Shown: positions 5,241 through 32,000, counted from the first letter of the stretch. The stretch is DNA of 32,000 nt from Pseudodesulfovibrio mercurii (GCF_000189295.2 NC_016803.1:1560001-1592000), one strand, 5' to 3'. Notes: generated from the letters alone by a model not told the origin. Numbers and translations: made by a program.

Positions 5241-5268
5241 CCGTGCTGTCGTCATGCACCCGGCCAGA

Positions 5269-10823: not shown

Positions 10824-10860
10824 GTCGGTTTCGTCCGCGCCGGGCCGTCGCGCCCGTTGC

Positions 10861-13037: not shown

Positions 13038-13077
13038 TCGAGCATAATAATTGACATGTCCTGTCGAGCATAATAAT
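13038..13077 (+). promoter_or_regulatory. Two identical 14-bp direct repeats (TCGAGCATAATAAT) with 26-bp period, bracketing a candidate sigma-70 promoter for the receptor operon
   Basis: Repeats at 13038-13051 and 13064-13077. A perfect TTGACA at 13051-13056 lies between them. AATAAT (13072-13077, 15-nt spacing) lies inside repeat 2. This would give a leader of about 140 nt before the ATG at 13225. Confidence 0.4.
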
Positions 13078-13224
13078 AGAACCTTCTGTCTGGGATGTTC
13101 TGCTATTCCACCGTTCGCAACGCTGCTGCTGGATGCGGCACGGTCGCGTTCCGCGAGGTCATGGGGGGCCGCGCGGTTATCCCGGACACGCGGCCGGTCT
13201 GCCCATGCTCATGAGGAAACCGGA

Positions 13225-15195: not shown

Positions 15196-15220
15196 CCCGC
15201 CGGGGAGCGTCCAGGAGCAT

Positions 15221-16564
15221 ATGTCGGCACATCTGCGCCTGCGGGAACTGAGCATACGGTTCAACGACCGAACACCGCCGGTCCTCACCGGAGTCAATCT
15301 CTCGGTGGGGGCCGGCGAATGCCATTGCATCGTCGGTCCCACCGGAAGCGGCAAGTCCAGCCTCCTGCTGGCCGCCGCGGGCCTGCTCCCCCCCGAGGCC
15401 CTGAACGGGGCGATGGAGCGCACCGGACGGGCCGGCACCGTGTTCCAGAATCCCGGCACCCAGATCCTCTTCGACCACGTGGGTCCTGAGACCGCCTTCG
15501 CCCTGGAGAACGCGGGCGTCGATCCCGCCGCCATGCCGGACAAGGTCGCCCGCGCCCTGGCCGAGGCGGATCTGCCCGTGCCCACCCACACCCCGACCTC
15601 CAGCCTGTCCATGGGACGCCAGTACCGCCTGGTCCTGGCCGGGGCCCTGGTCACGGAACCGGGGCTGCTCCTGCTCGACGAGCCCTGCGCCCAGCTCGAC
15701 CCGGACGGCTGCCGCGCCGTGGCCGGGGTGGTGGACGCCGTCCTGAAGCGGGGCGGCGGCGTGCTCCTGTGCGAGCACCGGCCCGATCCCCTGGCGGCGC
15801 ACATCACCCACTGGTGGCGCATCGAGGACCACGGGCTGCGCCCGTCCGAGCCGGTCCTCGCCCCGGCCCCGCCGCCGCGCGCGGCGAACCGGCCGACCGA
15901 CGGGACCGGACCGGCCCTGCTGGAGGTCTGGGACCTGTCCCTCCGGCGGGGGGACCACCAGGTCTTTTCCGGCCTCGACCTGACCATCCGGCCGGGCGAG
16001 GCCGTGCACGTGGAGGGCGGCAACGGCAGCGGCAAGTCCACCCTGACCCGCATCCTGGCCGGGTTCCTGGCCCCGGACGCGGGCACCGCGACCCTGTTCG
16101 ACCAGCCCGTGGCCCCGGCCCGGCTGCGCGGCCGGGTGGGCCTGGTCCTGCAAAGCCCTTCCAGCCAGCTCTTCGAGGACACGGTCCTGCGCGAGCTGGC
16201 CTACGCGGCCCGGCGCAAGGGACTGGACGACCCCGAGGGCCGGGCCCGGTGCGCGGCCAAGGCGCTGGGCATCAGCGACCTGCTGGACCGCGCCCCGTTC
16301 CTGCTCAGCTACGGCCAGCAGCGGCTGACCGCCCTGGGGGCGTGCCTGACCCAGGAGCCGGACCTGCTCCTGCTGGACGACCCCTTCGCCGGGCTGGACC
16401 GGGAGGCCCGCGAGCGGGTCCACGGCGTGCTCGACGCGGAGCGCGCCCGGCGCGGCATGGCCGTGCTGGTCACGGGTCACAACCCGACCTCTTCCCTTCG
16501 TTTCGCCGATTTCTATACCCGCGAGCTGCGGATTTCAGGGGGCCGTCTTGAACCCGTGGCCTGA
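15221..16564 (+). CDS. Fused double ABC ATPase (EcfA/CbiO-like A-A fusion)
   Basis: 447 aa with AGGAG upstream. NBD1 has GPTGSGKSS, LSMGRQ, LLLLDEP and CEH. NBD2 has GGNGSGKST, LSYGQQ, LLLLDDP and TGH. It is followed by an EcfT-like gene rather than a type I/II permease. Confidence 0.8.
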   Translation: MSAHLRLRELSIRFNDRTPPVLTGVNLSVGAGECHCIVGPTGSGKSSLLLAAAGLLPPEALNGAMERTGRAGTVFQNPGTQILFDHVGPETAFALENAGVDPAAMPDKVARALAEADLPVPTHTPTSSLSMGRQYRLVLAGALVTEPGLLLLDEPCAQLDPDGCRAVAGVVDAVLKRGGGVLLCEHRPDPLAAHITHWWRIEDHGLRPSEPVLAPAPPPRAANRPTDGTGPALLEVWDLSLRRGDHQVFSGLDLTIRPGEAVHVEGGNGSGKSTLTRILAGFLAPDAGTATLFDQPVAPARLRGRVGLVLQSPSSQLFEDTVLRELAYAARRKGLDDPEGRARCAAKALGISDLLDRAPFLLSYGQQRLTALGACLTQEPDLLLLDDPFAGLDREARERVHGVLDAERARRGMAVLVTGHNPTSSLRFADFYTRELRISGGRLEPVA

Positions 16565-17249
16565 ACCGTCCGCGCGCCCGGCCCGCTTCAGGCCCCCGGC
16601 CTGGCTCATGCTCATCCTCTGCCCGGTGCTGTCGCTCCTGGCCGTGGTCTGGCACGGACCGTGGTCCATGCCGGTCCTGGCCGTGATCGAGGGCGGGCTG
16701 CTGCTGATCTCGCGGCCCGGCCCGCGCCGTCTGCTGCGCCTGGCCATGGCCTGCTTCTGGCAGATCGCGGTGGTCACGGGGCTGTACTGCCTGCGCTTCG
16801 GCCCAGGCGAGTGGCGCGGCGGACTGGACGTGTCCCTGCGCCTGATCCTGGTCTTCGTGCCGGGCATGCTGACCGTCCGCCTGGTGCCCCCGGCCGCCCT
16901 GGAACGGATCCTCAAGCGCATCCTGCCCGGCAACCTGCCCTTCGTGGCCGCCTGCTGCCTGCGCTTCTTCCCCCTGCTCATCGAACGCGTGCGCGTCATC
17001 CACGAGGCCCAGGTCCTACGCGGGGCGCGGGTGCTGCCGCGCGAATTGCTCAACCCGCGCAACTGGCCCGACGCCGTGTCCTGCATCGGCCTGCCCGCCG
17101 TGCTGCAAAGCATCGAGCTGGCCACGGAGATCGCGGACAGCGCCAAGGCCAGGGGGTTCTCCATGCGCGGCAACCGCACGGCCTGGCCCCTTGACGAAGC
17201 ACAACGCCACGCGGAGGCCGAGGCCGCCGCAGAGGAGTCCCTCCCTTGA
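16548..17249 (+). CDS. ECF transporter T component (EcfT/CbiQ-like)
   Basis: 233 aa with TTG start at 16548 after AGGGGG; an alternative ATG lies at 16608. Overlaps the ATPase gene by 17 nt. Five or so hydrophobic helices. Two Ala-Arg-Gly-type coupling motifs (AQVLRGAR and SAKARGFS), characteristic of T components. Confidence 0.7.
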   Translation: MNPWPEPSARPARFRPPAWLMLILCPVLSLLAVVWHGPWSMPVLAVIEGGLLLISRPGPRRLLRLAMACFWQIAVVTGLYCLRFGPGEWRGGLDVSLRLILVFVPGMLTVRLVPPAALERILKRILPGNLPFVAACCLRFFPLLIERVRVIHEAQVLRGARVLPRELLNPRNWPDAVSCIGLPAVLQSIELATEIADSAKARGFSMRGNRTAWPLDEAQRHAEAEAAAEESLP

Positions 17250-17812
17250 CCGACAACGCCCCTTACAACGGTCCCTCCACCGCCCTGCGGGACACCCTGC
17301 TCATGGGCTTCTGCGCCCTGTTCCTGCTGGCCACCAAGATGGTCCTGCGCCTGAACCTGGGCATTCCGGGCCACGCCATGTTCTTCACCATCTTCTTCCT
17401 GATCCTGCCCAGGGCGGTGACCGGGCTGAAGTTCGCGGCCACGGCCACGGGTCTGGCGGCGGGCCTGGCCTCGGTGCTGCTCGGCATGGGCAAGGGCGGC
17501 CCCCTGCTGCTGCTCAAGTTCCTGTTCCCGTCCCTGTGCGTGGACCTGGCCTTCCTGTTCTTTCCCGGCCTGGGCGGCTCGCTGCTCTTCTGCGCCCTGG
17601 TCGGATTCATCGCGGCCGCCACCCGCATCATCGGCGTGGCGGTCACGGACTGGCTGGTGGGCATGGACCCCGAGATCATCATGGCCCACGCCTTCCTCAA
17701 GACCCTCGGCGGCGCCCTGTTCGGGGCGCTGGGCGGCCTGGCCGTCGCACCCATCATCCGTAAACTCAAGGCACGGGGCCTTCTCCCCGCGACCCCACAA
17801 CCAAGAGGCTGA
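17246..17812 (+). CDS. Small six-helix integral membrane protein; candidate ECF substrate-capture (S) component of unknown family
   Basis: 188 aa. The TTG start at 17246 overlaps the upstream TGA (TTGA) and AGAGGAG lies 8 nt upstream. I count six hydrophobic segments. Size and position after A and T genes fit an S component. It lacks the CbiM/NikM MHIxxG N-terminus. Confidence 0.5.
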   Translation: MTDNAPYNGPSTALRDTLLMGFCALFLLATKMVLRLNLGIPGHAMFFTIFFLILPRAVTGLKFAATATGLAAGLASVLLGMGKGGPLLLLKFLFPSLCVDLAFLFFPGLGGSLLFCALVGFIAAATRIIGVAVTDWLVGMDPEIIMAHAFLKTLGGALFGALGGLAVAPIIRKLKARGLLPATPQPRG

Positions 17813-17813
17813 C

Positions 17814-18548
17814 ATGCGCTACTATCTCTGCATCGACGACACCGACAACCTGGAGACCAAGGGCACCGGCTGGCTGGCCGAACAGGCCTGCAACGAGATG
17901 AAGGACCTGGGGCTGGGCTCGTTCTCGGCCATCAGCCGCCACCAGCTCTTCGTCCACGAGGACGTGCCCTACACCTCGCACAACAGCTCCATGTGCATGG
18001 AGATGGAGGAGTGCGGCGACCCCGAGGCGGTCATCCGCTACATGCAGGCCTTCCTCGAACGCAACGGCGCGCCCGGCTCCGACCCCGGCCTGTGTCTGGT
18101 CCCCGAGACCCTGTCCGGCGAGGCCAGGGAGCGGCTCATCCGCTTCGGCAACGACGCCAAGTGCACGGTGCTGAACAAGGGACTGGCCTACGGCTTGGCC
18201 GGTGAGCTGGGCGTGCACCTGTCCGAGCACGGCGGCACGGGCGACGGCGTGGTCGGCGCCCTGGCGGGCGTGGGCTTGCGCATGGGCGGCCAGGACGGCC
18301 GCTACCGGAGCTGGATGCACCTGGGGCCCGACGGCACGGTCATGCCCGCGGGCGAGGTCGCCCGGCTGTGCGGGGCCCATCACGTCCAGGACGAGGCGGA
18401 CGCGGTCCTGGCCGACGAGACCCCGGTCCTGCTCCAGGAGCAGATCAAGCTCATCCGCCGCCACGGCCAGGCCGTGCTCCTGGCCCGCCCCGACAACGGG
18501 AACGGGACCATGCGCCTGCTGCACAAGAAGGAATTGAAGATTTACTGA
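17814..18548 (+). CDS. Soluble protein with TiaS N-terminal kinase-domain-like motifs (IDDTD...T18); function unknown
   Basis: 244 aa with ATG at 17814 and AAGAGG upstream, 2 nt after the previous stop. The N-terminus MRYYLCIDDTDNLETKGTGWL and the later GTGDGVVGALAGVG resemble remembered archaeal TiaS (MRVWVGIDDTDSSRGMCTTYL ... GRGLIGALAAVG). No signal peptide or transmembrane segment. Confidence 0.45.
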   Translation: MRYYLCIDDTDNLETKGTGWLAEQACNEMKDLGLGSFSAISRHQLFVHEDVPYTSHNSSMCMEMEECGDPEAVIRYMQAFLERNGAPGSDPGLCLVPETLSGEARERLIRFGNDAKCTVLNKGLAYGLAGELGVHLSEHGGTGDGVVGALAGVGLRMGGQDGRYRSWMHLGPDGTVMPAGEVARLCGAHHVQDEADAVLADETPVLLQEQIKLIRRHGQAVLLARPDNGNGTMRLLHKKELKIY

Positions 18549-18589
18549 GTCAACGGCCGCAGCCCGGCCCCAGCCCGCAAGGATGTGCC

Positions 18590-19426
18590 ATGAAGACCCG
18601 CCTCCGCCTGTTCGCCGCTCTGTTCCTCCTGCTCCCGCTCTGCGCGGGAGTCCTGGCCGAGCGCCCCGCCCACGCTGGGGACGAGGCTATCCCGGCCGCA
18701 CGGACGCGGGTGGAGGATTCGGCGCGCCGTGCCGGGACCGCCGGGGTCCGGGCCGAGAAATGGGCCGCCGAGCGCGAAGGCCTGCTCGACGAGGCCCGCC
18801 AGCTGCTTTACGACACCGAGGCGGACCGTTTCGCCGTGGCCCGGCAGGAGGCGTACATCGCCCGCGAACGGGCGGACATCAAGGAGCTCGGGGAACGCAC
18901 GGACGCGGCCCTGGCCACCCGGCGCGATCTGGACCGGGTCATGGAGACCCTCTACGCGGCCCTGGTCCGGGCGCGTGACCGGGACCTGCCCTTTGCCGAG
19001 GACGAGCGGAGGGCCAGGCTGGCCGCCCTGCGCCGGACCCTGGACGACCCCGACGCCCCGTCCGGCGAAAAGCTCGGCCGTCTGCTGGAGGCCCTGCGCA
19101 TGGAGGCGGGCTACAGCCTCGACGTGGAGGCCGAGGACGCGGTCATGCAGGTGCGCGGCGCGCCCATGGCCGTGACCGTGCTGCGCGCGGGCAGGCTGGC
19201 CCTGCTGCGCATGCCCGCCTCGGGCGCGTGGGTCGAACGGTTCGAACCGGCCTCGGCCGAGTGGGTCGAACTGCCCGGAGCCGACGGCCGCGAGCTGGTC
19301 AAGGCGGTGCAGATAGCCCGCAAGCAGCGCATCGCGGAGCTGATCTACCTGCCCGTGGGCCACGGAGCCCAGCCGACCGAATCGCAGTCCGCCGCCCAAA
19401 CCGCACAGACCGGGGAGGCGCAATGA
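18590..19426 (+). CDS. Periplasmic coiled-coil protein, DUF3450/TtpB-like first gene of a TonB2-type cluster
   Basis: Trimmed from ORF 18368-19426 to the ATG at 18590 with AAGGA upstream, giving 278 aa. Signal peptide MKTRLRLFAALFLLLPLCAGVLA. The central region is charged and heptad-like. The assignment rests on position and size immediately before a TtpC-like gene. Confidence 0.6.
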   Translation: MKTRLRLFAALFLLLPLCAGVLAERPAHAGDEAIPAARTRVEDSARRAGTAGVRAEKWAAEREGLLDEARQLLYDTEADRFAVARQEAYIARERADIKELGERTDAALATRRDLDRVMETLYAALVRARDRDLPFAEDERRARLAALRRTLDDPDAPSGEKLGRLLEALRMEAGYSLDVEAEDAVMQVRGAPMAVTVLRAGRLALLRMPASGAWVERFEPASAEWVELPGADGRELVKAVQIARKQRIAELIYLPVGHGAQPTESQSAAQTAQTGEAQ

Positions 19427-20868
19427 TCCGCCTTGCCCGCCGCCCGATTGTTTTTCCGATCCTCCGCCTGCGGCTCTGCCCGGCCCTGTGGCTGCTCCTC
19501 TGTCTCGCCGTGGCCGTTCCGGTCCTGGCCCGAACGGCTCGCGCGGCGGACGACGCCACAGCCCGCCTGGACGGCCTGGCCCGGGACATGACGGCCCGGA
19601 CCGGGGCCGTGAACAAACTCCTCGACCTGGACCGCGATCAACTCCGCACAAAGGTGGCCGCCCTGCGCAAGGCCCGCGACGCAGAGCGGGCCCGGCTGGA
19701 CAAGGCCGTGGCCGAACTGGCCCGGCTGCGCGGCGAGCGCGCGGAGCTGGCCGCCCGATACGACGCCGTGGCCGGGGAGATGCGCGCGGTGGAGGACGCG
19801 GTCCGGTCCAACGCGGCCCAGGCCCGCACCCTGCTCGCGGCGAGCGCCCTGACCTCCCTGGTTCCGGACCGCCTGGCCCCCCTGGACCGCGTGGCCCGGT
19901 CCCGCGACTTTCCCGGCCTCCCGACCATCACCGGTCTGGGAGGGCTGCTCCTGGACGAGATCCGCTCCGGAGCCACCGCCGAGACGCGGCCGGGGACCTT
20001 CCTCGGCCCGGACGGCCGGACGCGGACCGGCGGCCTGCTGCGCGCGGGCAGCCTGTTTCTCGGAGCCCGCGACGAGGACGGCCGGACCTGCCTGCTGACT
20101 CCCGGCTCCACGCCGCCGCAGGCCGTGGCCGCCACGCCCGGCGAGGCGGAAAAGGCCATGGCCGCCTGGGCCGACGGCGCGGGGCAGGTCCTGCCCGTGG
20201 ACCCGTCCCACGGCGCGGCCCTGTCCCTGCTTCAGGCCCGGCGCACCCTGGACGACTGGGTCCAGGGCGGCGGCCTGCTCCTGTGGCCCATCCTGGTCAT
20301 CGGCCTGGCCGCCCTGCTGGTGGTCTTCTACAAGGGCGCGCGCCTGTTCCTGGCCCGGCCCTGCCCCAGGGATTTCGCTCTGCGGTTGCGCACGGCCTGG
20401 GACGCGGACGGCCCGTCCGGTCTGACCCGGCTGCTGAAATCCCTGCCGCGCACCCCGGCGGCGCGGGTCCTGCTCTGGGCCGCTCCCGACGCCGACCCGG
20501 AGCTCCGGGACAAACGGCTCCAGGAGGGGTTCCTGGCCGAGCTGCACCGGCTGGAAAGCGGGCTGGGCTTCATCGCGGTCATGGCCGCCGTGGCCCCGCT
20601 CCTCGGCCTGCTCGGCACGGTCACGGGCATGATCGACTCCTTCCAGGCCGTGACCGTGTTCGGCACGGCCAACCCCCGGATCATGTCCAGCGGCATCAGC
20701 GAGGCGCTGATCACCACCCAGGCAGGCCTCGGCGTGGCCATCCCGGCCATGCTCCTGCACCAGTTCCTCAAGCAGCGAGTCCAGGGGCTGGCCTCGGACA
20801 TGGAGCAGCAGTGCGCGGCCTTCCAGGCCCTGCTCGCCGCGAACCCGGACAAGGACGGCGCGGCATGA
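19423..20868 (+). CDS. MotA/TolQ/ExbB-family proton-channel protein with a long N-terminal periplasmic coiled-coil domain (TtpC-like)
   Basis: Trimmed to the ATG at 19423, which forms an ATGA overlap and has GGGGAGG upstream, giving 481 aa. N-terminal signal/anchor, then a soluble region of about 250 aa. The C-terminus carries the family signature APLLGLLGTVTGMIDSF...GISEALITTQAGL. Confidence 0.8.
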   Translation: MIRLARRPIVFPILRLRLCPALWLLLCLAVAVPVLARTARAADDATARLDGLARDMTARTGAVNKLLDLDRDQLRTKVAALRKARDAERARLDKAVAELARLRGERAELAARYDAVAGEMRAVEDAVRSNAAQARTLLAASALTSLVPDRLAPLDRVARSRDFPGLPTITGLGGLLLDEIRSGATAETRPGTFLGPDGRTRTGGLLRAGSLFLGARDEDGRTCLLTPGSTPPQAVAATPGEAEKAMAAWADGAGQVLPVDPSHGAALSLLQARRTLDDWVQGGGLLLWPILVIGLAALLVVFYKGARLFLARPCPRDFALRLRTAWDADGPSGLTRLLKSLPRTPAARVLLWAAPDADPELRDKRLQEGFLAELHRLESGLGFIAVMAAVAPLLGLLGTVTGMIDSFQAVTVFGTANPRIMSSGISEALITTQAGLGVAIPAMLLHQFLKQRVQGLASDMEQQCAAFQALLAANPDKDGAA

Positions 20869-21410
20869 CCGGCCTGCTGCGGACCGTGCTCGACTTCGTC
20901 CACGCGGGCGGCGCGACCATGGCGCCCCTGCTGCTGTGCTGCCTGGCCATGTGGTATCTCATCCTGCGCGCCTGGCTCGACCTCCTGCCCGCATCGGCGG
21001 GCGGCCTGCGGGCCGAGCTGGAACAGACCTTCGCCCGGCTCTGCCCCGGCCCCGGTCCGGGGGACGCCGACCTGGCCGACGCCCTGGCCGAGGGCGTGCG
21101 CGCCCGTACCCGGCGCAGGCTCTCCCTGGCCGCCGTGTTCGCGGCCGCCGCCCCCCTGCTCGGCCTGCTCGGCACGGTCACGGGCATGATCGAGACCTTC
21201 GACGGCGTGGCCCGCTTCGGCTCGGCCTCGCCCCAGGTCCTGTCCTCGGGCATCAGCCAGGCCATGATCTCCACCCAGACCGGCCTGGTGGTGGCCGTGC
21301 CCGGCCTCATCGCCGTGTATTTCCTGCGCCGCCGCGCCCTGCGCCTGCACATCCGCCCGGAACGCGCACGCCCCGCCGTCCACGCCGTGACCGGAGGCGT
21401 CGCGCCATGA
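20865..21410 (+). CDS. exbB: ExbB-type proton-channel protein (short form)
   Basis: ATG at 20865 (ATGA overlap), 181 aa. Signature APLLGLLGTVTGMIETF...GISQAMISTQTGL. Confidence 0.85.
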   Translation: MTGLLRTVLDFVHAGGATMAPLLLCCLAMWYLILRAWLDLLPASAGGLRAELEQTFARLCPGPGPGDADLADALAEGVRARTRRRLSLAAVFAAAAPLLGLLGTVTGMIETFDGVARFGSASPQVLSSGISQAMISTQTGLVVAVPGLIAVYFLRRRALRLHIRPERARPAVHAVTGGVAP

Positions 21411-21844
21411 GAATCCTGCGCCGCGCCCAACGCGACGAGTCCGTGGACATCAACGTCGCCCCCATGGTGGACATGATCTTCATCCTGCTCATCTTCTTCC
21501 TGGCCACGGCCAGCTTCGTGCGCGAGAGCGGTGTGGACGTGCAGCGGCCTGCGGCGGCCAGCGCCGAGACCTCGGCGGACGAGGCCCTGATTATCGGGGT
21601 CACCGCCCAGGGCGCGCTGTCCATCGAGGGCGAGCGGCTGGACATCCGGGCCCTGCGCCCGCGCATGGAGCGGTTCGTGGCCGAACGCCCGGGCGGGCCC
21701 GTGGTCGTGGTCGCGGACCGGGACTGCCCCACGGGCATCACCGTGCGCGTGCTCGACGCCTGCCGTCTGGCCGGGGTGCGCTCGGTCAGCCTGGGGGCGC
21801 GGGCCGTGAAGGACGGATACGCTCCGGCCGGGGCGGCCCCATGA
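21407..21844 (+). CDS. exbD: ExbD/TolR-family biopolymer transport protein
   Basis: ATG at 21407 (ATGA overlap, GGAGG upstream), 145 aa. INVAPMVDMIFILLIFFL membrane anchor, typical of ExbD. Confidence 0.9.
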   Translation: MRILRRAQRDESVDINVAPMVDMIFILLIFFLATASFVRESGVDVQRPAAASAETSADEALIIGVTAQGALSIEGERLDIRALRPRMERFVAERPGGPVVVVADRDCPTGITVRVLDACRLAGVRSVSLGARAVKDGYAPAGAAP

Positions 21845-22485
21845 CCATGGGCAAGCCGCTGATCGCCCTGACGGGCGCGACGGCCGTGACCCTGGCCTTC
21901 TGCCTGCTCATCCCCCTGCTCGGCACGGTGCGCCACGCGGACGCCCCCATACTCCGGGACGACCCCGTGCCCGTGGCGGCCATGCCGCCCGAGACAAGAC
22001 ATCCGACCGAGGCGGGCGCGCCGGGCAGCATGGCCCGCGCCCTGCCGAGCGCGCCCCGGACACCGGCCGCGCCCCTGACCCTGCCAGCCTTGCAGGGACC
22101 GTCCGACATGCCCCTCCCGGCCCTGGAAGGGGAGCCCGAGTCCCTGGGATTGTCCATGAACGCGCCCGAGGGGCCTGGAGCCGTGCCCGCCGGGCCGGGC
22201 GACCCCGTCTTCGACCAGCCGCCGCGCGTGCTGACCCGGCTGGACCCGTACTATCCGGCGTCCGCCCGGCGCACCGGCACCCAGGGCCACGTCCTGGTCC
22301 GGGCCCTGGTGGACGAATACGGCCGGGTGACCGAGACCGAGGTGGTCGAGTCCGAACCGGCGGGCGTGTTCGACGAGGCGGCCCTCAAGGCCGTGCGCGG
22401 CTGGACCTTTGCCCCGGCCCGGCGCCGGGGAGAGCCCGTGGCCGTGCGCATCGACATCCCCATACGCTTCAGGCTGGACCGATGA
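21841..22485 (+). CDS. tonB: TonB energy transducer
   Basis: 214 aa (ATGA overlap). N-terminal anchor, Pro-rich linker, and a C-terminal domain YPASARRTGTQGHVLVRALVDEYGRV...AALKAVRGWTFAPA. Confidence 0.85.
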   Translation: MTMGKPLIALTGATAVTLAFCLLIPLLGTVRHADAPILRDDPVPVAAMPPETRHPTEAGAPGSMARALPSAPRTPAAPLTLPALQGPSDMPLPALEGEPESLGLSMNAPEGPGAVPAGPGDPVFDQPPRVLTRLDPYYPASARRTGTQGHVLVRALVDEYGRVTETEVVESEPAGVFDEAALKAVRGWTFAPARRRGEPVAVRIDIPIRFRLDR

Positions 22486-23972: not shown

Positions 23973-24812
23973 ATGGCCGCTCGTTCCCGATCCCGACCCG
24001 GCGGAAGACGCCATCCCGGACGCGTGGTTCACGGCGTCCCGCCCCTGTCCGCGCCGCCGCCCGCCGCACAGCTCGACGACCTGGCCGACACCGTGGCCAG
24101 GGAGCGCATGGAGCGCTTCGCCTCGGCCCTGCTTCCGGGGTTGCTGCTGGAGGGCGAAGGCGGTCCGGACGAGGGCTCCGGCCCCCGGATCAAGGACCTC
24201 TGCCTGGCCGTGCGCGACGCCTACGACCGGCTCGACGCCCTGTTCGCCGAGCTGACCCTGGACCCGCCCCTGGCCTGCAAGGCGGGGTGCGTCCACTGCT
24301 GCTGCAACCAGGTGGCCCTGACCGAACCCGAGGCCCTGTTCCTGGGCCAATATCTGCTGGAAACGCGCGACAGGGGGCGGCTCCTGGACCTGGAAACCCG
24401 GACGCGGGCCCTGGTCGAGGACCTCAAGGGCAAGAGCTGGCAGGACATCGGCATGATCCGGCACCGGCTACCCTGCCTGTTCCTGGAAAACGGCGGATGC
24501 TCGGTCTACCCCGCCCGTCCCCTGGCCTGCCGGGGCTGGAACTCGGTGGACGTGGGCCGCTGCGTGCAGAGCAACCTGTCGGAAAACGCCCTGACCATGA
24601 TCGAGAACCACCCCATCGTCCGGCGGCTGGCCGACGCCGTCCAGAACGGCCTGCTGCGCGGCGCCGCCGCCCTGAACCTCGAGGCGGGCTACCTGCTCAT
24701 GGCCCGCGCCGTGCTCCTCCTGCTCGAAGGCGGCGCGGAACGAGGAGTGCTCGACCGCACGGCCGACTGGTTGCGCGGCGCCCCGTTCTTCGGCCGCAAG
24801 CGGACATGGTGA
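23973..24812 (+). CDS. YkgJ-family Cys-cluster protein (putative Fe-S/Zn protein, UPF0153-like)
   Basis: 279 aa. The CKAGCVHCCCN motif (CxxCxxCC) plus the downstream CLFLENGGCSVYPARPLACRGW match the YkgJ/flagellin-N-methylase-type cysteine cluster. The start is uncertain (ATG 23973 after GAGG). Confidence 0.65.
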   Translation: MAARSRSRPGGRRHPGRVVHGVPPLSAPPPAAQLDDLADTVARERMERFASALLPGLLLEGEGGPDEGSGPRIKDLCLAVRDAYDRLDALFAELTLDPPLACKAGCVHCCCNQVALTEPEALFLGQYLLETRDRGRLLDLETRTRALVEDLKGKSWQDIGMIRHRLPCLFLENGGCSVYPARPLACRGWNSVDVGRCVQSNLSENALTMIENHPIVRRLADAVQNGLLRGAAALNLEAGYLLMARAVLLLLEGGAERGVLDRTADWLRGAPFFGRKRTW

Positions 24813-25102
24813 GCCCCGGCCCGAGGCCCCGCCACCGGGAACGCCGGGCCGGACCGGCGGCTGCACCGAATCGTCAACCGCCCCGGCCAAATCCATAAGA
24901 CTTTCTTCTGCGATCCACGCCCAGCGCCCCGGACGACCGCACAAGCCATAAGCAAGCGAAAACCGTTCGCCATCGGCAGCCAATTATTTATCAAAAATGG
25001 AAAGTATTGTCCCATTTTTGGCATTTTTCATCCGGCTTATTGCCGCAAAATGTAAATTCTGCCCATCGCGCGCCCTCAGCCAACGGTGTTGCTGATGTAG
25101 TC

Positions 25103-25117
25103 ATAAGTAAAACTTAT
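25103..25117. promoter_or_regulatory. Perfect dyad ATAAGT-aaa-ACTTAT (T-N11-A LysR-box format), about 200 nt upstream of the creatinase gene
   Basis: Read directly. Flanked symmetrically by CAACGGTG (25081-25088) and its complement CACCGTTG (25130-25137). The only LysR-family gene in the window is 30574-31485. Confidence 0.35.
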
Positions 25118-25323
25118 TTTACGGGCGCGCACCGTTGCACAGTCGCTCGGAACATCTCCGGAAAAGTAAAATACTACATGAATTAAATCAGTATGTTGTG
25201 ATTGCTTATGGCTTACAGTCGGCAAATCCGGCCCCGGTTCCGCGGGGTTCAGGCCTGCCCGTTGCAGAGAAGGGGGCAAACGCAGGCGCATCCGCCCGCA
25301 ACAAATACCTGGAGGAACCGAAA

Positions 25324-26532
25324 ATGGATATGGTCGATGTTTTGGAGATAAAGAACGGCAACAGGGTCAAGGGGACCTTTTCCAGCGCCGAGATGCAGCG
25401 CCGCATGGACTCCCTGCGGGCCTACATGGCCAGGGAGAGCGTGGACGCCATCCTCTTCACCTCCATACACAATATCAATTACTACAGTGACTTTCTCTAC
25501 ACCTCCTTCGGCCGGTTCTTCGGACTGACCGTCACCCAGACGAACTCCACGACCATCAGCGCCAACATCGACTACGGTCAGCCCTACCGGCGCAGCTTCG
25601 GCGAGAACATCGTCTACACGGACTGGAGCAAGGACAACTATTTCAAGGCGATCAAGAAGCTGCTGGCCGGAAGCAAGCGCATCGGCATCGAGTTCGACCA
25701 CATCTCCGTGCAGAACCGCAGCAAGCTCGACGCCATCTTCCCGGGCGCGGAATTCGTGGACATCAGCGAGGGCGTCATGCGCATGCGCATGATCAAGTCC
25801 CAGGAGGAGATCGACCTGATCACCATCGGGGCCAACGTGGCCGACATCGGCGGCGCGGCCTGCGCGGCGGCCGTGGGCGAGGGCGTGCCCGAGCACGAGG
25901 TGGCCCTGGCCTCCACCAACGCCATGGTCCGCGAGATCGCCCGCCGGGTGCCGCACGGCGAGCTGCGCGACACCTGGACCTGGTTCCAGTCCGGAATCAA
26001 CACCGACGGCGCGCACAACCCGGTGACCAGCCGCCGCATCCAGAAGGGCGACATCCTCAGCCTGAACTGCTTCCCCATGATCGCGGGCTACTACACCGCC
26101 CTGGAGCGCACCCTGTTCTTCGGCGAGCCCTCGCCCCGCGCCCTGGAACTGTGGGAGTTCAACTGCGCGGTCTACCGCAAGGGGCTGACCCTGATCAAAC
26201 CGGGCGTCCGCTGCTGCGACATCGCCGCCGAACTCAACGAGATGTATGCGGAAAAGGGCCTGCTGGCCAACCGGACCTTCGGCTACGGCCACTCCTTCGG
26301 CGTGCTCAGCCACTACTACGGCCGCGAGGCCGGGCTGGAGATCCGCGAGGACATCGAGACCGTGCTCGAACCGAACATGGTCATCTCCATGGAGCCCATG
26401 ATCACCATCTCCGAGGGCGAGGACGGCGCGGGCGGCTACCGCGAGCACGACATCCTGGTCGTGACCGAGGACGGCGCGCGCGACATCACCGGCTTCCCCA
26501 CGGGCCCGGAACACAACATCATCAAGGCCTAA
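25324..26532 (+). CDS. Creatinase (creatine amidinohydrolase, M24 family with creatinase N-domain)
   Basis: Trimmed from ORF 25135-26532 to the ATG at 25324 with GGAGGA 7 nt upstream, giving 402 aa. Long near-identical runs to remembered Pseudomonas putida creatinase: FTS.HNINYYSDFLY, IVYTDW..DNYF, MRMRMIKS.EE, DTWTWFQSGINTDGAHNPVT, KGDILSLNCFPMIAGYYTALERTLF, RTFGYGHSFG.LSHYYGREAGLE.REDI.TVLEP, GAGGYREHDIL. Confidence 0.9.
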   Translation: MDMVDVLEIKNGNRVKGTFSSAEMQRRMDSLRAYMARESVDAILFTSIHNINYYSDFLYTSFGRFFGLTVTQTNSTTISANIDYGQPYRRSFGENIVYTDWSKDNYFKAIKKLLAGSKRIGIEFDHISVQNRSKLDAIFPGAEFVDISEGVMRMRMIKSQEEIDLITIGANVADIGGAACAAAVGEGVPEHEVALASTNAMVREIARRVPHGELRDTWTWFQSGINTDGAHNPVTSRRIQKGDILSLNCFPMIAGYYTALERTLFFGEPSPRALELWEFNCAVYRKGLTLIKPGVRCCDIAAELNEMYAEKGLLANRTFGYGHSFGVLSHYYGREAGLEIREDIETVLEPNMVISMEPMITISEGEDGAGGYREHDILVVTEDGARDITGFPTGPEHNIIKA

Positions 26533-26550
26533 CCCGCCCGGAACACCGAA

Positions 26551-27453
26551 ATGAACGCCGCCCTGCCCGCCCTCGCAACCATCCTCATGTGGAGCTCCCT
26601 GGCCCTGCTCACGGACCGGATCTCGCACCTCCCGCCGCTCCTCTCGGTGGGACTGGTCCTGACCGTGTGCGGGCTGGCCGGAGCCGTGCGCCTGCGGCAC
26701 TGGAAGGTCTCGCCCGCCACGTGGCTCGTGGGCGTGGGCGGCATCTTCGGATACCACTTCCTGCTCTTCGCGGCCTTCGGGCGAGCCCCGGCCGTGGAGG
26801 CGAACATGATCCAGTACCTCTGGCCCCTGTTCATCGTCCTGTTCACGCCCCTGTTCCTGCCCGGCCACAGGCTGACGCCCGGCCACCTGCTCGGCGCGGC
26901 CCTCGGCCTGGCGGGCGCGGGGCTGATCGTCACCGGCGGACGGCTGGGGCTGCGCATGGAGTATCTGCCCGGCTACCTCTGCGCCCTGGGCGCGGCCGTG
27001 ATCTGGGCCTGCTACTCCCTCGGGACCAAGCGGCTGCCCCCCTTCCCGTCGTCGGCGGTGGGCGGCTTCTGCCTGGTCTCGGGGCTGCTGTCCCTGGCCC
27101 TGCACTTCGCCACCGACGGGCCGGGACCGGCGCCGTCGTCCGGGGACTGGCTGATCGTCCTGCTGCTCGGCTGCGGCCCCATGGGCGCGGCCTTCTACAC
27201 CTGGGACGCGGCCATGAAGCGGGGCGATCCGCGCATGATCGGAGCCCTGGCCTACCTGACCCCCATGCTGTCCACCCTGCTGCTCGTGGCCGTGAACGGC
27301 AGGCCGTTCACCGTCCTGCACGGGGCGGCGGTCGTGCTGGTCACGGGCGGGGCCGTGGTCGGGTCCCTGGACTCCCTGCGCCCGCTCTTCGCCAACCTCT
27401 GCGCCGGACGCCGCCGGGCGTGGGCCGGATCATCGGCCAGACCGAGGAAGTAA
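26551..27453 (+). CDS. DMT-superfamily (EamA-like) membrane transporter
   Basis: 300 aa with about ten hydrophobic helices in two similar halves. Gly/Ala/Leu-rich composition is typical of EamA-domain permeases. Confidence 0.75.
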   Translation: MNAALPALATILMWSSLALLTDRISHLPPLLSVGLVLTVCGLAGAVRLRHWKVSPATWLVGVGGIFGYHFLLFAAFGRAPAVEANMIQYLWPLFIVLFTPLFLPGHRLTPGHLLGAALGLAGAGLIVTGGRLGLRMEYLPGYLCALGAAVIWACYSLGTKRLPPFPSSAVGGFCLVSGLLSLALHFATDGPGPAPSSGDWLIVLLLGCGPMGAAFYTWDAAMKRGDPRMIGALAYLTPMLSTLLLVAVNGRPFTVLHGAAVVLVTGGAVVGSLDSLRPLFANLCAGRRRAWAGSSARPRK

Positions 27454-27507
27454 TCGACCTTTGCCAAGAACCCTATGAGAGAGAAACCGTTTTACAGGAG
27501 AGTTGTC

Positions 27508-28359
27508 ATGATTCGTGGATTCAAATTCGTTGCCCTCATGCTGGCATGCTTCTTGATGCTGGGCGTACAGGCCCAGGCCAAGGATCTGCTCAGCGAAGTC
27601 AAGGAACGCGGCGAACTGGTCGTCGCCACCGAAGCGCGCTTCGCCCCGTTCGAGATGCTCAAGGACGGGAAGATCGTCGGCTACAGCAAGGACCTGCTGG
27701 ACGAGATCATGAAGGATCTGCCCGGCGTCAAACTCAACCAGCTGGACCTCCCCTACCAGGGCATCCTGGCGGGCCTGGTCGCCAAGCGGTACGACTTCGT
27801 GTGCACCTCGCTGACCATCACCAAGGAACGGGCGGCCAAGTACGCCTTCACCCTGCCCTTCTCCACCGCCGCCCTGACCATCGTCAAGCGGGCCGGTGAC
27901 GACTCCATCAAGTCCGGCGAGGACATGGCCGGACGGATCATCGGCATCCAGGCGGGCGCCGCCCCCTACTTCACCGCCCTGAAGGACTACGAGAAGGAAG
28001 TCCTGATTCCCAAGTACGGCAAGGGCGTGGCCGAGCTCCAGGAGTTTATCTCCAGCGACGACGCCTACGCCGCCCTGGCCGGCAAGCGGGTGGACGCGGT
28101 CATCAACACCGTCCCGAACCTGGCCCCGCTGGTCAAGGAGCGCCCGGACGTCTTCGAGATCGTCATGCCGCCCTTCGGCCCGCCGACCTACTTCGCCTGG
28201 GCCGGACGCAAGGACGCGGAGAGCGCCTCCCTGGTCCAGTTCTTCAGCGACAGCATCCGCAAGCTGAACGAGAACGGCAAGATGGCCGAGCTCCAGAAGA
28301 AGTGGTTCGGGTTCACCATGGACGTGCCCATGGACAAGGTGCCGGAACCGGTCAACTAG
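27508..28359 (+). CDS. Periplasmic substrate-binding protein, polar amino acid ABC family (SBP family 3)
   Basis: Trimmed to the ATG at 27508 with AGGAG 7 nt upstream. Signal peptide MIRGFKFVALMLACFLMLGVQAQA. G.LVVATEA.FAPFE... and D.VINTVPN patterns are typical of HisJ/GlnH-like proteins. Confidence 0.85.
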   Translation: MIRGFKFVALMLACFLMLGVQAQAKDLLSEVKERGELVVATEARFAPFEMLKDGKIVGYSKDLLDEIMKDLPGVKLNQLDLPYQGILAGLVAKRYDFVCTSLTITKERAAKYAFTLPFSTAALTIVKRAGDDSIKSGEDMAGRIIGIQAGAAPYFTALKDYEKEVLIPKYGKGVAELQEFISSDDAYAALAGKRVDAVINTVPNLAPLVKERPDVFEIVMPPFGPPTYFAWAGRKDAESASLVQFFSDSIRKLNENGKMAELQKKWFGFTMDVPMDKVPEPVN

Positions 28360-28371
28360 CAGGCAACCGGC

Positions 28372-28403
28372 CTCCCCGGAGGGCAGCCCGCCCTCCGGGG
28401 GAG
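28372..28403 (+). promoter_or_regulatory. GC-rich stem-loop after the binding-protein gene
   Basis: CTCCCCGGAGGGC-agcc-GCCCTCCGGGGGAG, a 13-bp stem with one bulged G. Lies 13 nt after the stop at 28359. Only a weak T-run follows. Likely an intercistronic attenuator or stabiliser. Confidence 0.5.
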
Positions 28404-28435
28404 CCGCAACGTTTCAACGCGACGAAAGGCAAGGC

Positions 28436-29086
28436 ATGTTCGACTTCACCATCATATGGGGACACATCCCGGAGCTCATGGTCGGGGCCTGGCGGACGCT
28501 TTGGATATCCTTCGTGTCCATCATCATCGGCTTCGTCATCGGCCACCTGCTCTGCTTCGGCCGGTTCTCCGAGCACCGCCTGCTCAAGCGGTCCATCACG
28601 GCCTACGTGAGCTTCTTCCGGGGCACGCCCCTGCTGGTCCAGCTGGCCATCATCTTCTATTTCCTGCCCCTGTTCGGCATCTTCATCCCCTCTGTGGCCG
28701 CGGCCATCATCGCCCTGTCCATGAACACCGCCGCCTTCCAGTCGGAGATCCTGCGCGGCGGGTTCCAGTCCATGCCCCACGGGCAGATCGAGGCGGCCCG
28801 CGACTTGGGCCTGACCACCTGGCAGATCCGCCTGCACATCCAGATTCCGCAGGTCTTCCGGGCCACGCTCCCGGCCCTGGTCAACGAGTCCATCGACATC
28901 CTCAAGAACTCCGCGCTCATCTCGACCATCGCCGTGACCGACCTGATGCGCATCTCCCAGACCCTGGCCTCCACCACCTTCCGGCCCATCGAGTTCTTCC
29001 TGGCCGCCGGGGCCATGTATTTCGTCATGACCTACTCCATCAGCCACCTCGGCGTCGTGCTCGAGCGCAGGCTGAAAAGGACATAG
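28436..29086 (+). CDS. Amino acid ABC transporter permease (HisM/GlnP family)
   Basis: 216 aa. [10 protein letters not shown] and [21 protein letters not shown] motifs. Confidence 0.85.
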
Positions 29087-29094
29087 GCGGCACC

Positions 29095-29774
29095 ATGTTC
29101 GACGTCTCCATCATCCTCGAATACTACCCGCTCTTCCTCAAGGGGCTGGTCTACACCGTCCTGGTCTGCGCCGCGGGCATCCTCGGCGGGCTGGCCTGGG
29201 GGCTGGTCCTGTACGCCGCCGGGCGCGCGAACCTCAAGTTCCTGCGCGCGGCCTGCCGCCTCTACGTGAACATCTTCCGGGGGACCCCGCTCCTGGTCCA
29301 GCTCTTCCTGCTCTTCTACGGCGGCCCGCTCTTCGGCCTGCGCCTGTCGGCCATCGCCACGGGCATCCTCGGCCTGGCCGCCTACGGCGGGGCCTACTTC
29401 GCCGAGATCTACCGGGCCGGATTCCAGAGCATCCCCCCCGGACAGATCGAGGCGGCCCGCGACCTGGGCCTGTCCCGGTGGCAGATCGTCCGGCACATCC
29501 AGCTGCCCCAGATGCTCACCCTGATCCTGCCGCCCCTGACCAACCAGGCGATCATCATCGTCAAGGAATCGGCCATCCTGTCCATCATCACCGTGCCCGA
29601 GCTGACCACCGCGGCGGTCAAGGTCTCGACCACGACCTTCTCCATCGTCGAGCCCTACCTGCTCCTGGCCGCGGCCTACTGGCTCATCGTCCAGGGCATC
29701 TCCATGGGCGGCCGGGCCTGGGAGGCCCGGCAGATGGTCTATCTCGCCCGTCAACCTCAAGCCCCGGAAAAGCC

Positions 29775-29778
<4 letters not shown>
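29095..29778 (+). CDS. Amino acid ABC transporter permease (HisQ/GlnP family)
   Basis: Trimmed from ORF 28456-29778 to the ATG at 29095 ([17 protein letters not shown]...), giving 227 aa. [10 protein letters not shown] and [21 protein letters not shown] motifs. Confidence 0.85.
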
Positions 29779-30572
<794 letters not shown>

Positions 30573-30573
30573 T

Positions 30574-31485
30574 ATGGAAAAACTCAAGTCCCTGGACAGC
30601 CTGCGTTTCTTTTCCGCCGCCGCGCGCAACCTGAGCTTCACCGGCGCCGCCGCCGAGCTGGGCATCTCCCAGAGCGCGGTCAGCCAGCAGGTGGCCAAGC
30701 TGGAGGCCGGGATCGGCTTCAGGCTCTTCGAACGCCGCGCGCGGGGGCTGGCCCTGACCGACAAGGGGGCCCGGCTGTGGACCGCCGTGCGCGAAGGGCT
30801 GGGGCGCATCGAGCAGACCCTCCAGGAGCTCGACGACACGCGCCAGCTGGCCCAGATGACCGTGCGCGCCCTGCCGTCCTTCGCCGCCCGCTGGCTGCTG
30901 CCCAGGGTCATCAAGCTGCGCCAGTGGGCCCCGGAGCTGAACATCGTGGTCGATGCGGACCTGGCCCGGCCCGACTTCCTGCACGACGGGGTGGACGTGG
31001 CCTTCACCTACGGCAAGACCGACCACCCCGAATGGGACCAGAGCTTCCTGTTCCACGACGCCATCTTTCCGGTGTGCACGCCCGACTTCATGCGCGAGCA
31101 CGCCCTGAACACCCCCAGGGACCTGCGCGGGGGCTACCTGCTGCACGACTCCGTGCCCCAGGCCATCTACAGCACCAACTGGGACGCCTGGTTCGCGGCC
31201 CTGGGCATGTCCCTGCCCCAGGACGGCGCGGGACCGGCCTTCAGCACCCTGGCCATGGTCTGCGAGAGCGCCCTGGCCGGGCAGGGCGTGGCCCTGAGCC
31301 GCTATTCCCTGGTGGCCGACGACCTGGCCGCCGGGCGGCTGGTCCGGCCCTTCGAGCAGGTCACCCTGGAGGACGGCTTCTACCTGGCCTGCCCCAAGTC
31401 GAGCCTGAAGCGCGTGGCCATCCGCAAGTTCTACGAATGGGCCAAGGAACAGGCCGCGCTCTTCCGGGGAGGGATGGTCTTTTGA
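30574..31485 (+). CDS. LysR-family transcriptional regulator (GcvA-like subgroup)
   Basis: 303 aa. N-terminal wHTH FFSAAARNLSFTGAAAELGISQSAVSQQVAKLE. Starts 1 nt after the ATPase stop and is co-directional with the flanking genes. Confidence 0.9.
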   Translation: MEKLKSLDSLRFFSAAARNLSFTGAAAELGISQSAVSQQVAKLEAGIGFRLFERRARGLALTDKGARLWTAVREGLGRIEQTLQELDDTRQLAQMTVRALPSFAARWLLPRVIKLRQWAPELNIVVDADLARPDFLHDGVDVAFTYGKTDHPEWDQSFLFHDAIFPVCTPDFMREHALNTPRDLRGGYLLHDSVPQAIYSTNWDAWFAALGMSLPQDGAGPAFSTLAMVCESALAGQGVALSRYSLVADDLAAGRLVRPFEQVTLEDGFYLACPKSSLKRVAIRKFYEWAKEQAALFRGGMVF

Positions 31486-32000
31486 TCCGGCCCGTCGCCC
31501 GCCCGGAATCCGCCGCTCCCTCGGGCTGGAAGGCGGAGCTCGGCTTCGACTTCGCCCGGTCGGGCGGGCGGACCGTCCCGGCCCGCCGCCGCCATCGCGG
31601 GCCCCTGGCCATGCAGCGCCCCTTCTACCCGGAGCGCGACGTCTGCCACGTCTACGCCCTGCACCCGCCAGGCGGCGTGGTCGGCGGGGACCGGCTGCTG
31701 TTCGACGTGCGGGCCGAAAGCGGCGCGCACGGCCTGGTGACCACGCCCTCGGCGGGCAAGTTCTACCGCACGGCCGGTCCGGCGGCCGTCCAGGAACAGC
31801 GGCTGGCCGTGGCCCCCGGCGGGGCCCTGGACTGGCTGCCCCTCGAGACCATCGTCTACCCCGGTGCCGACGCCCGGCTCTCTACCAGGGTGGACCTGGC
31901 GGGCGACGCCGCCTTTTTCGGCTGGGAGGTGATCTGCCTCGGCCTGCCCGCGTCGAACGCCCCCTTCGACCGGGGGTTTTTCGTCCAGACCCTGGAGATA
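31482..32000 (+). CDS. ureD: Urease accessory protein UreD/UreH, N-terminal part; continues past the right edge
   Basis: Absent from the ORF track because it has no stop in the window. The frame is open from the TTG at 31482 (TTGA overlap with the LysR stop, GGGGAGGG 8 nt upstream) to 32000. Translation ...GWKAELGFDFARSGGRTV...GPLAMQRPFYPERDVCHVYALHPPGGVVGGD...PSAGKFYR...LDWLPLETIVYPGADARL matches remembered Klebsiella UreD blocks (QRPFYPE, HPPGG.VGGD, KFYRS, WLPQ). The exact start is uncertain. Confidence 0.8.
   Translation, partial: MIRPVARPESAAPSGWKAELGFDFARSGGRTVPARRRHRGPLAMQRPFYPERDVCHVYALHPPGGVVGGDRLLFDVRAESGAHGLVTTPSAGKFYRTAGPAAVQEQRLAVAPGGALDWLPLETIVYPGADARLSTRVDLAGDAAFFGWEVICLGLPASNAPFDRGFFVQTLEI

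Follow-up and report, generated by a model that had tools for sequence, protein, structure and literature searches.

A putative nitrogen-scavenging unit in Pseudodesulfovibrio mercurii: a conserved creatinase, transporter and LysR gene cassette followed by ureD

In Pseudomonas putida KT2440, creatinase is encoded in the creA-PP_3666 operon, whose regulator is CahR (Hinkel et al., bioRxiv 10.1101/2021.11.02.466972; Microbiology 2022), and some of the cahR/creA transposons of Acinetobacter include urease genes as well (Hinkel et al., bioRxiv 10.1101/2021.11.02.466972). Creatinase alone, without a module, has been mentioned on Klebsiella plasmids (PMC5820359). A creatine locus of Corynebacterium carries CreT, a transporter of the major facilitator superfamily (MFS), with AmtR, and the succession of creatinase and urease is textbook chemistry. 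The present analysis concerns eight genes at positions 25324-32000 of a 32,000-nt stretch of the Pseudodesulfovibrio mercurii genome (GCF_000189295.2, NC_016803.1:1560001-1592000; this whole stretch is called the window). An earlier note had seen in them a candidate creatine-to-ammonia module made of creatinase, an EamA-type drug/metabolite transporter (DMT), an ATP-binding cassette (ABC) importer, a LysR regulator and the urease accessory gene ureD. To our knowledge, MFS/CahR in Pseudomonas and CreT/AmtR in Corynebacterium are the only characterised bacterial systems of creatine uptake and its regulation. We consider it rather probable that the eight genes belong to a nitrogen-scavenging unit, in which a mobile seven-gene creatine cassette lies directly upstream of a urease operon and through which creatine nitrogen can probably be converted to ammonia.

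The P. putida locus resembles the window in its orthologous creatinase, in the use of creatine for nitrogen that is proposed for the window, in the presence of a transporter gene, which is transcribed together with creA, and in having its own regulator gene close by. Its regulator CahR, however, is of the GATase1-AraC type (GATR) and not of the LysR type, its transporter is a single MFS protein instead of an ABC system plus a DMT protein, its creA has no urease linkage, and sarcosine is oxidised by SoxBDAG, for which no genes lie in the window. The Acinetobacter transposons and a locus of Moraxella osloensis follow the same creatine-to-urea-to-ammonia logic as the window, with creatinase, transporters and a complete urease operon on one strand, but have a divergent GATR gene and an MFS importer and lack both an ABC system and a LysR gene. 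The EamA protein of M. osloensis is of another subfamily, the window EamA having no tblastn match in that locus (L011; loci used for comparison carry L numbers). The inspected island of a Klebsiella pneumoniae IncFIB plasmid (NZ_CP045194.1) resembles the window in encoding an M24 creatinase, a LysR protein, a binding protein and an ATPase (66%, 40%, 60% and 61% identity, respectively) as well as two permeases and a DMT protein, and has ATTAG-N5-CT[AT]AT boxes upstream of both operons. It differs in its divergent architecture, its plasmid location and the lack of adjoining urease genes, and it has no sigma-54-like element at the matching position, one loose match lying about 155 nt 5' of the binding-protein gene.

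In Pseudomonas aeruginosa, LysR-type regulators are said to control urea-releasing ureohydrolases acting on guanidino acids, with a linked transporter gene (the gbuA/gbuR and gpuPAR systems of Nakada and Itoh). These systems reportedly differ from the window in using arginase-family rather than M24 enzymes and in having a divergent regulator gene, and we know of no ABC importer of the window's family and no urease linkage in them. LysR-type regulators also operate within sigma-54/NtrC control of ammonia-releasing genes, including urease, as in AtzR/atzDEF of Pseudomonas sp. ADP and Nac/ureDABCEFG of Klebsiella aerogenes. There, the sigma-54 promoter belongs to the gene of the LysR protein, and its targets have sigma-70 promoters; in the window, a sigma-54-like element lies in front of the entire catabolic operon, of which the LysR gene is the last member. 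No description of a module of creatinase, LysR, ABC and DMT genes was found in the literature on creatinase with LysR regulators or ABC binding proteins. The earlier statement that a creatinase-urease operon of this form is undescribed holds for the LysR/ABC/DMT version and falls for the linkage as such, which occurs in Acinetobacter and M. osloensis: the transporter-and-regulator version is new, and the creatinase-urease linkage itself was already known from Acinetobacter.

The eight genes, identified by reading of open reading frames (ORFs) and by Pfam, are all on the plus strand with spacings of -4 to 76 nt:

25324-26532, plus strand: creatinase (creatine amidinohydrolase, M24 family), ATG to TAA, 402 amino acids, Pfam Creatinase_N and Peptidase_M24; 18-nt gap to the next gene
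26551-27453, plus strand: EamA/DMT transporter of the YddG type, Pfam EamA; 54-nt gap
27508-28359, plus strand: periplasmic binding protein, family 3, candidate for creatine/guanidino-acid binding, Pfam SBP_bac_3, N-terminus resembling a signal peptide; 76-nt gap
28436-29086, plus strand: ABC permease 1, Pfam BPD_transp_1, TIGR01726 above cut-off; 8-nt gap
29095-29778, plus strand: ABC permease 2, Pfam BPD_transp_1, ATG at 29095; 4-nt ATGA overlap
29775-30572, plus strand: ABC ATPase, Pfam ABC_tran; 1-nt gap
30574-31485, plus strand: GcvA-like LysR-type regulator, last gene of the cassette, Pfam HTH_1 and LysR_substrate; 4-nt TTGA overlap
31468-31473, plus strand: GGAGGG Shine-Dalgarno sequence of ureD, 8 nt 5' of the TTG and within the 3' end of the LysR gene
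31482-32000, plus strand, open at the window end: ureD, urease accessory protein, TTG start, Pfam UreD

This string had been described in the earlier note as eight co-directional genes with short gaps or overlaps, and all of them are present with a Pfam match behind each call; its coordinates stand as given, apart from the start of permease 2, which was moved to the ATG at 29095. The two junctions singled out there were also found as described: the LysR gene starts 1 nt after the ATPase stop (30572 to 30574), and the TTG of ureD (31482-31484) overlaps the TGA of the LysR gene (31483-31485) in the sequence GGGGAGGGATGGTCTTTTGATCC. The ureD product matches PF01774 (E 6.4e-37, profile positions 1-116 of 201). 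Since no further in-frame ATG, GTG or TTG occurs between 31482 and the conserved N-terminal block of UreD, the TTG is the sole start candidate there. A terminator-like hairpin in front of ureD (31459-31473) was rejected as a terminator because its stability does not exceed that of shuffled sequence (z = 0.82).

The product of 25324-26532 was compared with the PDB by phmmer and matches three solved creatinases over residues 2-402 (7yto, E 2.5e-176; 1chm, 1.2e-169; 1kp0, 1.7e-167), the next-best prolidases reaching only 1e-23 and the ectoine hydrolase DoeA 1e-6. Its domains are PF01321 followed by PF00557 (Creatinase_N and the M24 pita-bread fold), and an alignment gives 64% identity to the P. 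putida sequence of 1chm. In this alignment, Phe62, Arg64, His232, Glu262, Arg335 and Glu358 (P. putida numbering) are all kept, as they are in the creatinases of the closest cassette relatives L082 and L084. We take His232 to be the catalytic residue and the other five to be substrate-binding residues of the P. putida enzyme (Coll et al. 1990). The window product is on these grounds an orthologue of the characterised creatinases, and the very strong creatinase call made earlier is borne out, the enzyme being clearly separated from Xaa-Pro peptidases and ectoine hydrolases. M24 proteins of two other loci (L086:5651-6889 and L088:5634-6893) are just 59-61% identical to the window enzyme, and their genes always adjoin that of an agmatinase-like hydrolase. 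In the alignment, His232 is replaced by Phe and Arg335 by Leu in the former, and Glu262 by Ala in the latter; the two proteins may be paralogues acting on a different guanidino substrate.

The first seven genes are a conserved cassette that moves horizontally. All seven follow one another in the same order, with the 1-nt gap between ATPase and LysR genes, in Desulfogranum marinum (L081/L082) and in the metagenome locus L084, whose proteins are 68-85% identical to those of the window (creatinase 80-83%, binding protein 82-85%; in D. marinum 72-82%, with creatinase 82%, binding protein 82% and LysR 78% in L082). GC content is 46-47% at these loci (0.47 at L082) versus about 66% in the window cassette. 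A search with the LysR protein delimited a group of orthologues at 60-86% identity, after which identity falls to 51% and then to 44%. In every orthologue context read, the LysR gene is the last gene of the ABC importer unit, and the 1-nt gap to the ATPase gene is found in nine of the ten contexts of this LysR-terminal lineage. The GC content at third codon positions (GC3) of the window cassette, 0.92-0.95, equals that of the host genes, which means that the transfer is not recent. A recent transfer had been considered from a dip in GC content (0.58 at 25-26 kb) and was dismissed, the dip being mostly the AT-rich leader and GC3 being host-like. Two loci with relatives of the YkgJ-like gene that precedes the cassette (L175 and L176), read for the state of the site before its arrival, share no synteny with the window.

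More distant relatives are arranged in two further layouts. In one, LysR, creatinase and EamA genes share a strand and the ABC genes are divergent; it is carried by Stutzerimonas stutzeri (with no EamA match), Vibrio and Aliagarivorans and in part by metagenome-assembled genomes of Aeromonadaceae and Psychromonas, with 59-64% identity to the window in the binding protein and 39-44% in LysR. In the other, that of the Klebsiella plasmid, creatinase and LysR genes are divergent from those of the binding protein, two permeases, ATPase and DMT protein, and the island is flanked by IS5. The binding protein matches 275 Klebsiella plasmid records (about 60% identity), of which one was inspected (L177, NZ_CP045194.1 59778-66173); all its island genes are annotated generically. 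The co-directional LysR gene, called atypical in the earlier note, is no local oddity, being fixed in the lineage of the window with the 1-nt gap; these sister lineages have the classical, divergent arrangement.

The LysR-terminal cassette was found in ten distinct contexts, window included, whose relation to urease is as follows:

Window: ureD directly after the LysR gene, same strand
L083: ureDABCEFG directly after the LysR gene, with the same TTGA junction as the window
L174: LysR gene followed directly by ureDABCEFG, with ureG truncated where the contig ends
L091: ureDABCEFG directly after the LysR gene with a 30-nt spacer; cassette without creatinase
L086, L087 and L092: convergent ureGFECBAD-urtEDCBA cluster ending 30 nt after the LysR gene
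L088 to L090: aminotransferase and Fe-type alcohol dehydrogenase genes, then urtABCDE-ureD about 9 kb downstream of the LysR gene, same strand
L081/L082, L084/L085, L093 and L172/L173: no urease gene in the flank read, the shortest flank being about 2.7 kb

Urease genes thus lie within 10 kb in six of the ten contexts, in three geometries and with LysR identities from 83% down to 62%, and ureD directly follows the LysR gene in four (window, L083, L174 and L091). The closest relative with a readable context is L083, whose LysR protein is 83% and whose UreD is 74% identical to that of the window. The proposal that the urea produced feeds urease is strengthened by this recurrent link, which includes the three relatives in which ureDABCEFG comes directly after the LysR gene. 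Recurrence in different arrangements points to selection on proximity rather than to a single accidental landing, and the four contexts with no urease nearby indicate that proximity is not required. Among 80 species-level creatinase loci, urease was found within 10 kb in just two, both from M. osloensis (L011:8845-19461, CP069437.1; L016), where a GATR gene is divergent from creA-MFS-EamA-ureD-ureA-ureBC(fused)-ureE-ureF-ureG. The M. osloensis string is an independent invention of the same linkage. Beside both cassette and urease, genes of a class-III aminotransferase and an Fe-type alcohol dehydrogenase were observed in L088 (11309-13785) and L091 (17124-19744); the pair suggests further metabolism of the amine that is left after urea has been released from a guanidino compound.

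The ABC importer is of the polar amino acid type (PF00497, two copies of PF00528 with TIGR01726 above cut-off, and PF00005). No NCBIfam model matches the binding protein at its cut-off, and as no substrate-specific equivalog model reaches its cut-off, the ligand is not assigned by homology; relatives in the PDB are generic binders of Gln, Arg and His. Genomic context is more informative. Binding-protein orthologues are 60-86% identical across cassettes, and metagenome contigs were scanned with an alignment of eleven of them, the 80 loci returned being censused by tblastn. Relatives at least 60% identical keep company with creatinase, the LysR gene and EamA, and a creatinase and/or an agmatinase-like ureohydrolase is encoded nearby in about 42 of the 80 loci (near-duplicates included), the agmatinase-like enzyme in about 35, down to 46% binding-protein identity. 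Creatinase and the agmatinase-like enzymes alike split urea off a guanidino group, and an importer family for guanidino compounds is therefore the best reading. The earlier suggestion of a creatine or guanidino-compound importer fits this context, in which relatives are repeatedly linked to one or the other hydrolase, and the importer of the window may accept guanidinoacetate besides creatine. In about a dozen loci, the ureohydrolase gene sits inside the ABC operon, between the binding-protein and permease genes. Operons of this kind, with the hydrolase gene second and followed by those of two permeases and the ATPase, were often noticed among the metagenome loci (L105-L108, L119, L133-L145 and others) and look like a family, as yet uncharacterised, for uptake and hydrolysis of guanidino compounds.

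The DMT protein matches PF00892 in two stretches and is related to YddG (PDB 5i20, E 2.7e-60; NF050091, 256 bits, below the cut-off of 300). Homologues are encoded directly beside creatinase in L004, L006, L007, L017, L057, L081/L082, L084, L094, L099 and L103/L104. They were detected solely in loci that encode an M24 creatinase, usually adjoining it, and never in loci with a ureohydrolase only, as would suit a protein serving creatine or sarcosine, its specific product. This transporter is a candidate sarcosine exporter, of presumed substrate and direction. As the earlier note had remarked, no sarcosine oxidase or dehydrogenase domain occurs among the window ORFs scanned. Sarcosine oxidase requires oxygen, and an anaerobic sulfate-reducing host, with Desulfobulbales as the closest donor or relative of the cassette, fits this lack. 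Use of creatine for nitrogen only, with export of sarcosine, would likewise fit an anaerobic host.

The regulator appears to be a LysR-type transcriptional regulator that is GcvA-like (PDB 8y6u GcvA, E 1.1e-51) and not a GcvA equivalog (NF008352 GcvA, 265 bits, below the cut-off of 288). The leader in front of the creatinase gene (24813-25323) has 511 nt and a GC content of 0.55, and contains the following elements:

24890-24899 and 24943-24955, plus strand: two direct copies of a CCATAAG half-site-like motif, from a repeat search
25103-25117, plus strand: palindrome ATAAGTAAAACTTAT, a T-N11-A dyad 221 nt 5' of the creatinase ATG, candidate LysR operator
25202-25214, plus strand: TTGCTTATGGCTT, inverted half-site copy about 50 nt 5' of the sigma-54-like element
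25252-25266, plus strand: sigma-54-type -24/-12-like element GGCCTGCCCGTTGCA, GG-N10-GC, 72 nt 5' of the creatinase ATG

The palindrome, whose T-N11-A form is typical of LysR operators, is the sole match to ATAAG-N5-CTTAT in the whole window (0.00 expected). Exact copies occur six times in 171 fetched loci (2.4 Mb), five of these sites being in regulatory regions of the cassette or the LysR gene. Four of the six lie 230-237 nt 5' of the first cassette gene (L081 and L082, from the same organism, L084 and L091), and one lies between the LysR and binding-protein genes of L108. A further exact copy is found at -226 in L172, a locus besides the 171, and a copy with one mismatch at -229 in L086, so that positions of the palindrome relative to the first gene range from -221 to -237 across the window, L082, L084, L086 (one mismatch), L091 and L172. 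In divergent-type loci including the Klebsiella plasmid, ATTAG-N5-CT[AT]AT is located between the LysR gene and its targets. Co-occurring with LysR orthologues in both cassette architectures, the palindrome at 25103-25117 is a candidate operator of the cassette LysR. CCATAAG-like copies were also noticed at 24890 and 25099, and a perfect 13-nt inverted repeat, AAGCCATAAGCAA (24943-24955) and TTGCTTATGGCTT (25202-25214), 100% complementary, flanks the palindromic box; these copies and the repeat may be extra half-sites of the regulator.

The second element of the leader, extended by one position to AGGCCTGCCCGTTGCA (25251-25266), is spaced like a -24/-12 promoter and fits 9 of the 12 positions of the sigma-54 consensus TGGCAC-N5-TTGCW. 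Across the sequence analysed, matches of 9/12 or better occur at 0.19 per kb and strand. GG-N8-TTGC[AT] recurs in all seven cassettes whose 5' region could be read, at -63 to -77 relative to the first start codon, and seven cassettes have both the T-N11-A palindrome and a sigma-54-like element 5' of the first gene. The palindrome is placed 149-164 nt 5' of the GG, a distance that appears enhancer-like and unusual for a LysR site. The enhancer-binding activator of nitrogen-scavenging genes is typically NtrC; a sigma-54 promoter would put the operon under an enhancer-binding activator, which fits creatine as a nitrogen source. A scan of 24500-32000 for sigma-70 promoters gave none. A guanidine or other riboswitch in the leader was considered and rejected, Rfam being empty (whole window at gathering thresholds; 24800-25400 at E <= 1). 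Related elements precede urtA in L088, where a box-like ATAAGCGATACTTCT is followed 168 nt downstream by TGGCAC-N5-TTGAT, a spacing as in the cassette promoters. This hints at a urea transporter/urease operon with a cassette-like promoter architecture, in one lineage and with a mismatch in each element.

Taken as one nitrogen-scavenging unit, the genes would work as follows. The binding protein and ABC importer would take up creatine and possibly guanidinoacetate, and creatinase would split creatine into sarcosine and urea. Transcription would proceed from a sigma-54-type promoter about 50 nt 5' of the creatinase ATG and be modulated by the cassette's own LysR protein bound at ATAAG-N5-CTTAT. 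With no terminator and a TTGA overlap in between, the transcript would span the seven genes and continue into ureD and the urease genes. Urease would turn urea into two molecules of ammonia, by which two of the three nitrogens of creatine would be recovered, and sarcosine would leave through the DMT protein or be used elsewhere. The sequence shows which genes these are, how they are ordered and joined, that the cassette is conserved and that urease recurs beside it; ligand, inducer, promoter type, joint transcription with ureD and the destination of sarcosine are inferred.

Several findings weigh against this proposal. The window stops after 173 codons of ureD, so that ureABC is not visible in it, and exact-sequence look-ups of the creatinase and LysR proteins, meant to extend the contig, matched no record. 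Urease was not seen in four of the ten contexts within the flank read, which was short in some of them; the cassette evidently works unlinked, and adjacency may partly reflect the landing site. Binding proteins 73-74% identical to that of the window belong to cassettes with an agmatinase-like hydrolase only and no creatinase (L091 and L172), so that the ligand in the window may be broader than, or differ from, creatine. The window as a whole shows no enrichment of the loose sigma-54 motif, for which reason the weight of the element comes from its conserved position in leaders that are otherwise unalignable. Finally, sigma-54 promoters require an enhancer-binding ATPase; as none was recognised among the window ORFs scanned and LysR proteins are not of this kind, the sigma-54 model is incomplete.

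It is conceivable that two independent units merely abut, a mobile cassette having landed 5' of an existing urease operon with its own promoter, in which case the lysR/ureD overlap has no regulatory meaning. The cassette is clearly mobile, being 72-82% identical between genomes of 47% and about 70% GC and flanked by IS5 on the Klebsiella plasmid, and both the contexts with no urease nearby and the rarity of urease next to creatinase in general (two of 80 loci) agree with such a landing. Repeated chance landing is unlikely, however, given three arrangements among relatives down to 62% LysR identity, and the junction itself, where stop and start codons overlap by 4 nt behind a Shine-Dalgarno sequence and no hairpin forms, also weighs against two separate units. 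The host-like GC3 of the cassette shows the junction to be old, and the cassette-type elements and spacing upstream of urtA in L088 also speak against separate control; we regard the account as unlikely, though it deserves some weight. The same L091 and L172 loci, in which close relatives of the importer and of LysR are paired with agmatinase-like ureohydrolases, raise the question of whether the M24 enzyme and importer handle guanidinoacetate, guanidinopropionate, guanidinobutyrate or an agmatine-like compound instead of creatine. The loss of residues considered catalytic in the M24 proteins of L086 and L088 and the lack of a curated family model naming the binding protein point in this direction, but the window enzyme itself is 64% identical to P. 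putida creatinase, matches three solved creatinases at 1e-167 to 1e-176 and keeps all six checked residues, also in L082 and L084, which makes another substrate improbable.

The position of the LysR gene immediately 5' of ureD, overlapping it here and directly followed by it in four contexts, would also be expected if the protein chiefly controlled urease, as Nac or UreR do, and came after the ABC genes only incidentally. This is very improbable in our view, for the gene keeps its place behind that of the ATPase, at 1 nt in nine of ten contexts and also where no urease is near, its divergent-type relatives adjoin creatinase and the binding-protein gene with the box in between, and the only exact box of the window is 5' of creatinase and not of ureD. 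The reading of a creatine cassette directly upstream of a urease operon is therefore preferred.

A wider proposal can be put forward only tentatively, and we think it less likely to be right than wrong: the window may belong to an undescribed, modular operon family of anaerobic Desulfobacterota and others, with a guanidino importer, interchangeable hydrolases, a YddG-type sarcosine exporter and a terminal LysR gene on a sigma-54 promoter that reads into urease. If true, its importer would be the first dedicated ABC importer for creatine or guanidinoacetate, the hydrolase slot would be interchangeable among creatinase, diverged M24 paralogues and agmatinase-like enzymes, and LysR would control a sigma-54 promoter from the distance of an enhancer (about 150-165 nt upstream). 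What goes beyond the original finding is the modular make-up of the cassette family, in which creatinase and agmatinase-like genes swap at the 5' end, its spread from sulfate reducers to clinical plasmids and the conserved box with its sigma-54-like promoter. Creatine and related guanidino compounds are plentiful nitrogen sources of animal origin, for instance in urine, in meat and in the dissolved organic nitrogen of the sea and of sediments, and the cassette points to creatine use by a probably strictly anaerobic sulfate reducer with a different and widespread set of importer and regulator, to be found also in the 275 Klebsiella plasmid records. Production and hydrolysis of urea would be physically, and probably transcriptionally, fused. 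Hundreds of genes now annotated as "amino acid ABC transporter" or "M24 metallopeptidase" could be renamed accordingly.

The surroundings bear on the identity of the host. The gene just upstream of the leader (23973-24812) encodes a YkgJ-like cysteine-cluster protein whose named homologues, full-length and 45-65% identical, are all from Desulfovibrionaceae (Desulfovibrio, Pseudodesulfovibrio, Oceanidesulfovibrio and Maridesulfovibrio); this sole usable clue makes a Desulfovibrionaceae-like anaerobe the probable host. Named matches of the window EutB are about 70% identical, spread over several phyla and uninformative on this point. At about 70% GC, the window would be unusually GC-rich for Desulfovibrionaceae.

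At 13051-22485, a TonB-dependent receptor, a fused two-domain ATPase of the ECF-type CbiO kind (TIGR01166 cbiO, 212.8 bits, cut-off 211.8), CbiQ, three ORFs with no family, a long ExbB, ExbD, TonB and then a TPR protein are encoded. Rfam, run on the whole window at gathering thresholds, detected no riboswitch at this cluster, which may be a nickel/cobalt uptake system serving urease. On the minus strand, 3241-12672 encodes the ethanolamine ammonia-lyase EutBC, a polyamine-type ABC system (SBP_bac_8, TOBE ATPase and permease), an M20 amidohydrolase and a GltD-like Fe-S flavoprotein, and the neighbourhood as a whole looks enriched in nitrogen-scavenging functions.

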